Part shown: piece after piece, positions 57,271 to 57,453 of the stretch | Position numbering within the stretch: position 1 is the stretch's first letter | How the letters are laid out: every line of letters starts with the position of its first letter | Source: Escherichia coli | GTDB lineage: Bacteria; Pseudomonadota; Gammaproteobacteria; Enterobacterales; Enterobacteriaceae | DNA: 64,000 nucleotides | Assembly: GCF_003334405.1 (NCBI RefSeq) | Contig: NZ_QOWM01000008.1 | Reading direction: 5' to 3' (one strand) | Translations under genes and position numbers: made by a program | The notes under the pieces: generated by a model | Databases searched by the model: none | Seen by the model: only the letters and a program-made list of their open reading frames with translations | Told to the model about the DNA's origin: nothing

Positions 57271-57453
57271 TCATCGATCTTGTATCACTTTTTTGCCGGA
57301 AGTTGTTTGCATTTTATTAGTTGGATAGGGTTTGTGGATTTTTGCTGGCTGACGGGCAAATAAAGTTTGTTTAATGGTTTGCTTATCTGCCAGTTGATTA
57401 ATCACATGGCGGGCTATCTGACCGCCAGCACCAAGAATCAGTACATTTTTCAT
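57271..57453 (-). pseudogene. ymjC: Remnant N-terminal fragment of a NAD(P)-binding Rossmann-fold protein
   Basis: 60 aa ORF starting MKNVLILGAGGQIARHV (GxGxxG dinucleotide-binding motif), far too short for an intact enzyme; C-terminal codons read through the 31 bp repeat at 57285-57315. Confidence 0.6.

Follow-up and report, generated by a model that had tools for sequence, protein, structure and literature searches.

Two features of this locus call for explanation: a reading frame that opens with the nucleotide-binding signature of an enzyme closes after only 60 codons, and it does so across one copy of a repeated sequence. The frame lies on the minus strand at 57271..57453 of the window, the 64,000-nucleotide stretch of Escherichia coli DNA analysed here, and its translation of 60 amino acids runs MKNVLILGAGGQIARHV...KMQTTSGKKVIQDR*. 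Over positions 51591-60591 the window does not differ from positions 1385000-1394000 of K-12 MG1655 (NC_000913.3; 0 mismatches in 9,001 bases), and the ORF corresponds to ymjC (b4525; 183 nt) of MG1655, annotated as 'putative uncharacterized protein YmjC', which adjoins ymjD (b4673) and is flanked by tpx, ycjG, mpaA, ycjY, pgrR and mppA. Annotation of ymjC in K-12 is already known, and its truncation has been flagged by automated pipelines; in strain 300709, PGAP treats the first 138 nt of ymjC as a pseudogene, 'NAD-dependent dehydratase, incomplete, missing C-terminus'. What is added here is the exact 664-bp deletion behind the truncation, the frequencies of the alleles, the origin of the flanking repeats, a stepwise reconstruction of the locus and a coincidence between two of its breakpoints. 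The features are listed in Table 1.

Table 1. Features of the ymjC locus in window coordinates.
Feature	Position	Strand	Remarks
mpaA, ancestral neighbour on the left	56461..57189	-	
Non-homologous ORF tail KMQTTSGKKVIQDR*, read from ancestral intergenic DNA including repeat copy 1	57271..57315	-	
Repeat copy 1, ancestral-type sequence, left edge of the cassette	57278..57314	+	core 57285-57314
Deletion junction, 1 nt (T, base 57315) ambiguous	57314..57316	.	blastn against L001 and L003
Cassette remainder in K-12: ymjC', ymjD', ycjY, pgrR and about 240 nt downstream of pgrR	57315..59723	.	missing between mpaA and mppA from the other Escherichia species, from other genera and from 174 genomes of E. 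coli
ymjC', 46 retained N-terminal codons, including the GAGGQIA dinucleotide-binding motif	57316..57453	-	100% identical to residues 1-46 of the 212-aa ortholog
ymjD (b4673), 21-codon remnant MKHIQIRNSDMDWHIAANNLG* of the second alpha/beta-hydrolase gene	57459..57524	-	separate deletion of about 0.9 kb
ycjY, alpha/beta hydrolase, first gene of the cassette operon	57524..58444	-	
pgrR (ycjZ), LysR-type regulator of the cassette, divergent from ycjY	58582..59481	+	PMC5934670
Repeat copy 2, diverged duplicate, right edge of the cassette, followed by ancestral spacer CTTTAAGGCGAAACAAATAATTACGC	59724..59760	+	core 59731-59760
Putative mppA promoter, TTTGCA-18-AATAAT or TTGCAT-17-AATAAT; the -35 would be the right end of copy 2	59752..59781	+	consensus scan
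mppA, ancestral neighbour on the right	59818..61431	+	

The beginning of the ORF holds a dinucleotide-binding motif (GxxGxxG/A after beta-1) as LILGAGGQIARHV at residues 5-17. An earlier note on this DNA had seen this motif, had counted about 46 residues of plausible protein before the stop, and had proposed that an NAD(P)-dependent enzyme gene is broken here; comparison with other strains bears out each of these points. Megablast of window positions 57150-57560 (411 nt) against 5,426 complete E. coli genomes finds one place spanning at least 80% of the query in 3,924 genomes, and in many strains the position of ymjC is taken by an annotated 'SDR family oxidoreductase', with about 665 bases more than in the window. 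U14A (L001) and RM9975 (L003) have there, between mpaA and ycjY, a CDS of 212 aa, an intact syntenic ortholog at the same locus. Its product covers positions 1-184 of the 184 of Pfam PF13460 (NAD_binding_10; E=3.4e-54), with weaker matches to NmrA and Epimerase, and aligns over residues 1-212 with PDB 3QVO ('NmrA family protein'; E=2.6e-138). Neither the intact SDR protein nor either hydrolase of the locus passes the cut-off of any NCBIfam family, the best hit being a weak match to UilS-lactonase, and the 60-aa ORF gives sub-threshold matches only. The window ORF and the intact protein part company at residue 47, where the latter continues SKIIMGDV... and the former reads KMQTTSGKKVIQDR*. The complete Rossmann-type domain of about 184 residues is absent from the window ORF, which keeps 46 of the 212 residues of the ortholog, and therefore this domain cannot form from the window copy.

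The DNA missing from the window was delimited by blastn, which aligns the region in two pieces, each at 97-99% identity: window 57100-57315 corresponds to L001 3451-3666 and window 57315-57600 to L001 4331-4616 (L003 was also aligned). The gap between them, L001 3667-4330, is 664 bp and comprises 164 nt of downstream spacer and the last 500 nt of the SDR gene. Where the gene is intact, the DNA corresponding to the ORF tail (L001 3622-3666) is non-coding spacer, and the intact C-terminus is not encoded across the repeat; the SDR stop codon lies 164-165 nt away from it. The junction falls at 57314/57315 or 57315/57316 with a microhomology of 0-1 nt. The sides of the two breaks, GCATTTT/CATTGATG and CTTGC/TATTAG, offer no useful microhomology; longer ones near the breakpoints, TTGC and TATTAG, were considered and discarded since they are out of register with the observed junction. 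The 664 bp were lost by an illegitimate deletion of an ordinary kind. In 2,293 of the 5,426 genomes (42%), an 80-nt probe that spans the junction is matched at ≥99% identity, and this identity of the junction points to a single event that was inherited or spread by recombination. The K-12 junction also occurs in Escherichia sp. E1V33 (L007). There, at L007 5431-5460, the K-12-type junction stands beside a copy 1 of the E. coli type, and copy 2 and the mppA flank carry the bases of other Escherichia (GCC, GTTATTTGC, TTCTTCAAGGAG), a mosaic that suggests recombination between lineages within the locus. A promoter-like sequence, TCCACA-16-TAAAAT at 57311-57338(-), spans the junction in the direction of mpaA and is exclusive to the deleted allele; the match to consensus of this site, with its -10-like hexamer, is no better than in shuffled sequence.

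On its left, the deletion directly adjoins the right end of repeat copy 1. The core of the repeat, TCACTTTTTTGCCGGAAGTTGTTTGCATTT, has 30 nt, with 28 of 30 positions identical between 57285-57314 and 59731-59760; permissive scoring extends it to 37 nt (57278-57314 and 59724-59760; 32/37). The bases of copy 2 are TTTGTCAC...GATGG. It had been stated that the last codons of the ORF are encoded by a 31-bp repeat: residues K47-V56 are indeed read from it (57286-57315), but the core measures 30 nt, and base 57315 is the ambiguous T of the junction. The proposal that the break in homology at the left copy marks a deletion or rearrangement breakpoint holds, as the deletion does adjoin copy 1, but needs two refinements, on the age of the repeat and on its origin. 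In strains with an intact SDR gene copy 1 is present and unchanged (L001 3636-3665), and the similarity between the two copies stops at GCATTT, the next base being the first of the segment that is deleted in K-12. Because copy 1 already stands beside the intact gene, the repeat is older than the deletion and copy 2 is not its other endpoint. Recombination between the two copies, or between copy 1 and a cryptic third copy inside the SDR gene, might be suspected from the contact of the left breakpoint with copy 1. However, the right breakpoint (L001 4330/4331) lies within SDR coding sequence with nothing repeat-like around it, copy 2 is intact 2.4 kb further on, the two breaks share 0-1 nt only, and recombination between the copies would yield the empty-site allele instead; such an origin of the deletion is therefore extremely unlikely.

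Nor does the repeat seem to belong to a dispersed intergenic family such as REP/BIME, ERIC or MITE, an insertion of which would have broken the gene. The repeat is short and intergenic, as members of these families would be, but a pattern search allowing ≤3 mismatches finds exactly two copies in the 64-kb window (0.00 expected from 100 shuffles) and a median of two places per E. coli genome, Rfam gives no credible family match over 56400-60000, and a single conserved copy sits in the ancestral spacer across genera and also beside the intact SDR gene. We give this explanation practically no weight.

The origin of the two copies becomes clear from mpaA loci outside E. coli, for which one genome per species was fetched and the neighbouring genes were mapped. 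In E. albertii, E. whittamii and three other Escherichia lineages mpaA and mppA are adjacent and divergent, and the same adjacency is found in about 70 other Enterobacteriaceae (Citrobacter, Enterobacter, Klebsiella, Kluyvera, Leclercia and others). The uninterrupted spacer is about 170-190 bp long and has one repeat copy, which runs on continuously as ...TCTTGTATCACTTTTTTGCCGGAAGTTGTTTGCATTT followed by CTTTAAGGCGAAACAAATAATTACGC...; such single-copy empty sites include L005, L006, L008, L009 and L013. At every base, copy 1 of the window matches the single copy of the empty sites L005, L089 and L090. Of the 5,426 E. coli genomes, 174 also have the empty arrangement, and the two sites examined among them have copy-1-type bases throughout, which fits either an ancestral origin or excision via the repeats. 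At occupied E. coli sites the left part of the spacer, up to GCATTT, stays beside mpaA with copy 1, and the right part, from CTTTAAGG, is beside mppA after copy 2. Single-copy empty sites and split flanks together identify the DNA between the copies as an insertion flanked by a target duplication of 30-37 bp. The inserted block codes for the SDR gene, the hydrolases and the LysR regulator only, and no integrase, transposase or terminal inverted repeats were found in it. For RM9975, PGAP annotates 31 codons downstream of pgrR and ahead of copy 2 (window 59579-59671, +) as a fragment of 'epoxyqueuosine reductase QueH', which neither NCBIfam nor Pfam reproduced.

The same set of genes, a LysR regulator divergent from two alpha/beta hydrolases and an SDR gene, is found at unrelated loci in contigs of the Salmonella/Klebsiella type (L085-L087) and in Serratia marcescens (L088), with 77-79% nucleotide identity to the E. 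coli block. In L085-L087 the operon extends further, with a classical SDR and an OYE-family reductase, and in L085 and L087 homology with the E. coli block does not go beyond the start codon of the following gene in the operon. Since the cassette recurs at unrelated loci and homology ends at a gene start, E. coli must have acquired a fragment of a mobile accessory operon together with its own regulator, PgrR. The repeat was not found in the donor-type cassettes L085, L087 and L088 at up to 7 mismatches. The slot beside these cassettes is variable: L085 has Pycsar-like genes at 10068-11978 (a cyclase with AGS_C, and PycTM), and L087 has CBASS-like genes at 9988-11936 (SMODS/AGS_C and SLATT_6). 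This slot looks like a hot spot of defence islands beside the pro genes.

After its arrival the cassette has been eroded. The second hydrolase gene, intact in RM9975 (L003 4488-5379), is present in 1,272 of the 5,426 genomes, and the 664 bp deleted from K-12 in 2,901. The counts fit a series of nested alleles: an empty site (174 genomes), the full cassette (about 1,272), loss of the second hydrolase (about 1,631), and loss of the second hydrolase with truncation of the SDR gene, or the K-12 type (2,293, all at ≥99% identity). At the ymjD junction, 12 nt (AATATTTCTCAT) between two TCAT repeats by the SDR start codon are missing as well. Strain 492 has an IS5 inserted in the SDR gene (L004 4349-6052), and DETEC-P881 combines a different internal deletion of the SDR gene with a ycjY-pgrR deletion (L092 1615-2546). 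The cassette thus decays in several independent ways. These alleles also bear on whether ymjC, instead of being a pseudogene, could be a genuine small-protein gene of 60 amino acids that was kept to serve a new function. Its CDS annotation in RefSeq MG1655 keeps a function of the product formally conceivable, it lies inside a transcribed operon (PMC3946193; PMC5934670), and its allele is found in 42% of complete genomes. Against this, the NAD(P)H-binding domain is down to about 46 of its 184 positions and the tail is translated spacer, PGAP flags a pseudogene, the gene has decayed independently in other strains, and 174 genomes do without the entire cassette. A retained small-protein gene is thus very unlikely, and ymjC is presumably a dead stub without function.

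The position of the insertion gives the repeat a possible meaning of its own. In an alignment of 75 uninterrupted Enterobacteriaceae mpaA-mppA spacers, conserved blocks are GCAGTGTTGTGCAAA and AATCAAATAGTTTC near mpaA, TCAAnTTT...TTTGCAtTT, which is the repeat, and AACAAATAAT about 17 nt beyond it. The last two contain hexamer regions resembling -35 and -10 elements that are conserved in the 75 spacers; the consensus scan calls them as TTTGCA-18-AATAAT, and its total of 7 sites does not exceed the 6.2 expected from shuffles. To judge from this conservation, the repeat would be the upstream half of the mppA promoter, including the -35, and the cassette would have landed between -35 and -10; copy 2 with the right flank would keep the promoter whole. 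The duplicated segment may thus be the upstream promoter half, and the duplication simply what kept mppA expressed. A literature search found no mapped transcription start site of mppA. The two blocks near mpaA, which are strongly conserved in window positions 57190-57277 when aligned with the spacers of L005-L084, are candidate regulator or promoter sites.

On the mpaA side, published work regards ycjY-ymjD-ymjC(-mpaA) as an operon under PgrR (PMC5934670; PMC3946193). A literature search on ymjD returned unrelated acronyms only. The published ycjY-ymjD-ymjC-mpaA operon and its control by PgrR exist because the cassette inserted there. Just past the SDR stop codon, within the 164 nt of spacer that are deleted in K-12, L001 has a 12-bp perfect hairpin followed by UUAUUAAACUUAU (3780-3812, minus strand), and the Salmonella/Klebsiella-type cassette of L085 preserves this hairpin through compensatory changes. 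It may be an attenuator or an RNA-stability element between operon genes, and its loss may raise read-through from the PgrR-controlled ycjY promoter into mpaA.

One further observation concerns the mechanism of insertion and deletion. The left end of the 664-bp deletion lies ≤1 nt from the old insertion boundary after ...TTTGCATTT, a coincidence expected by chance with a probability of about 1% (about 3 positions in a 290-nt spacer) and noticed post hoc. In Salmonella enterica subsp. arizonae and diarizonae, the mpaA-mppA spacer has an insert of 3.1-3.4 kb (L025 4856-8001; L027 4570-8001) that codes for a lipoprotein, a DNase-I-like protein of the CdtB type and a third secreted protein and resembles cdtABC; this spacer lacks the conserved -10 block of mppA. 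The boundary after ...TTTGCATTT could be recombination-prone or att-like, in that the cassette would have been integrated site-specifically, the repeat serving as attL/attR core, and the deletion would have been an aberrant event at the same cut site or at the boundary of homology and heterology during recombination of an occupied with an empty allele. The block does have direct repeats of 30-37 bp on either side, empty sites have one copy, occupied and empty alleles coexist in E. coli, the deletion ends within 1 nt of the boundary, and similarity of the arizonae and diarizonae spacers to other genera likewise ends after TTGCATTT. However, the block is devoid of the integrase, transposase and terminal inverted repeats looked for above, the Salmonella boundary is good to about ±12 nt only, since the next bases are non-conserved promoter spacer, the independent deletion in L092 has another endpoint, and the argument comes down to one coincidence of about 1% spotted afterwards. 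We regard an att-like site as rather unlikely. It is similarly doubtful that the point after ...TTTGCATTT, between the putative -35 and -10 of mppA, is a recurrent point of breakage or integration used by the cassette, by the 664-bp deletion and possibly by the cdtABC island of arizonae and diarizonae; if it were, this would imply a mechanism directed by a specific site or by structure, or else stalling where homology passes into heterology between empty and occupied alleles that coexist.

Taken as a whole, it is highly probable that ymjC is the stub of an SDR gene truncated by deletion, within a cassette that was inserted with duplication of a promoter half and has decayed stepwise. In Enterobacteriaceae generally, mpaA and mppA diverge from a spacer of about 170-190 bp with a single ...TCACTTTTTTGCCGGAAGTTGTTTGCATTT and, 17 nt on, a conserved AATAAT, together resembling a promoter of mppA. 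A cassette gained by horizontal transfer in the E. coli lineage, consisting of pgrR divergent from ycjY, the second hydrolase gene and the SDR gene and cut from a longer operon, would then have landed directly after ...GCATTT. The insertion would have left the upstream promoter half of 30-37 bp on both sides, so that copy 2 would still give mppA a complete promoter. Decay would have started with a deletion of about 0.9 kb that took the second hydrolase and left ymjD, and the 664-bp illegitimate deletion would have followed later, taking the SDR gene from codon 47 together with 164 nt downstream. Translation of the stub now enters the former spacer and stops after 14 unrelated codons.

The truncation by itself matters little, and the side results are of modest use. 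First, the 'peptidoglycan-recycling' operon ycjY-ymjD-ymjC-mpaA is an evolutionary accident, in which an unrelated mobile cassette of hydrolases and an oxidoreductase came to lie there with PgrR and is half decayed in K-12. As the operon was made by the insertion of the cassette, control of mpaA by PgrR may be specific to a lineage or an allele. Second, the locus provides four clean structural alleles at one place (empty, full and two stages of decay), counted over 5,426 genomes. Third, it provides a conserved putative promoter footprint for mppA.

Compared with known systems, the cassette resembles islands with attL/attR cores, and insertions with long target duplications, in that the repeat is single where the site is empty and stands in direct orientation on both sides of the insert, and in that occupied and empty alleles coexist within the species; it differs from these systems in being without a recombinase gene, a tRNA target or terminal inverted repeats. 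As for the protein, the N-terminal beta-alpha-beta unit of NAD(P)H-binding atypical SDR and NmrA-like proteins is kept in ymjC with its GAGGQIA, but the domain, complete in the ortholog, is reduced to 46 of 212 residues in the window copy. Finally, the ymjC and ymjD of the K-12 operon ycjY-ymjD-ymjC-mpaA are the same DNA as that of the window, with no difference between them.
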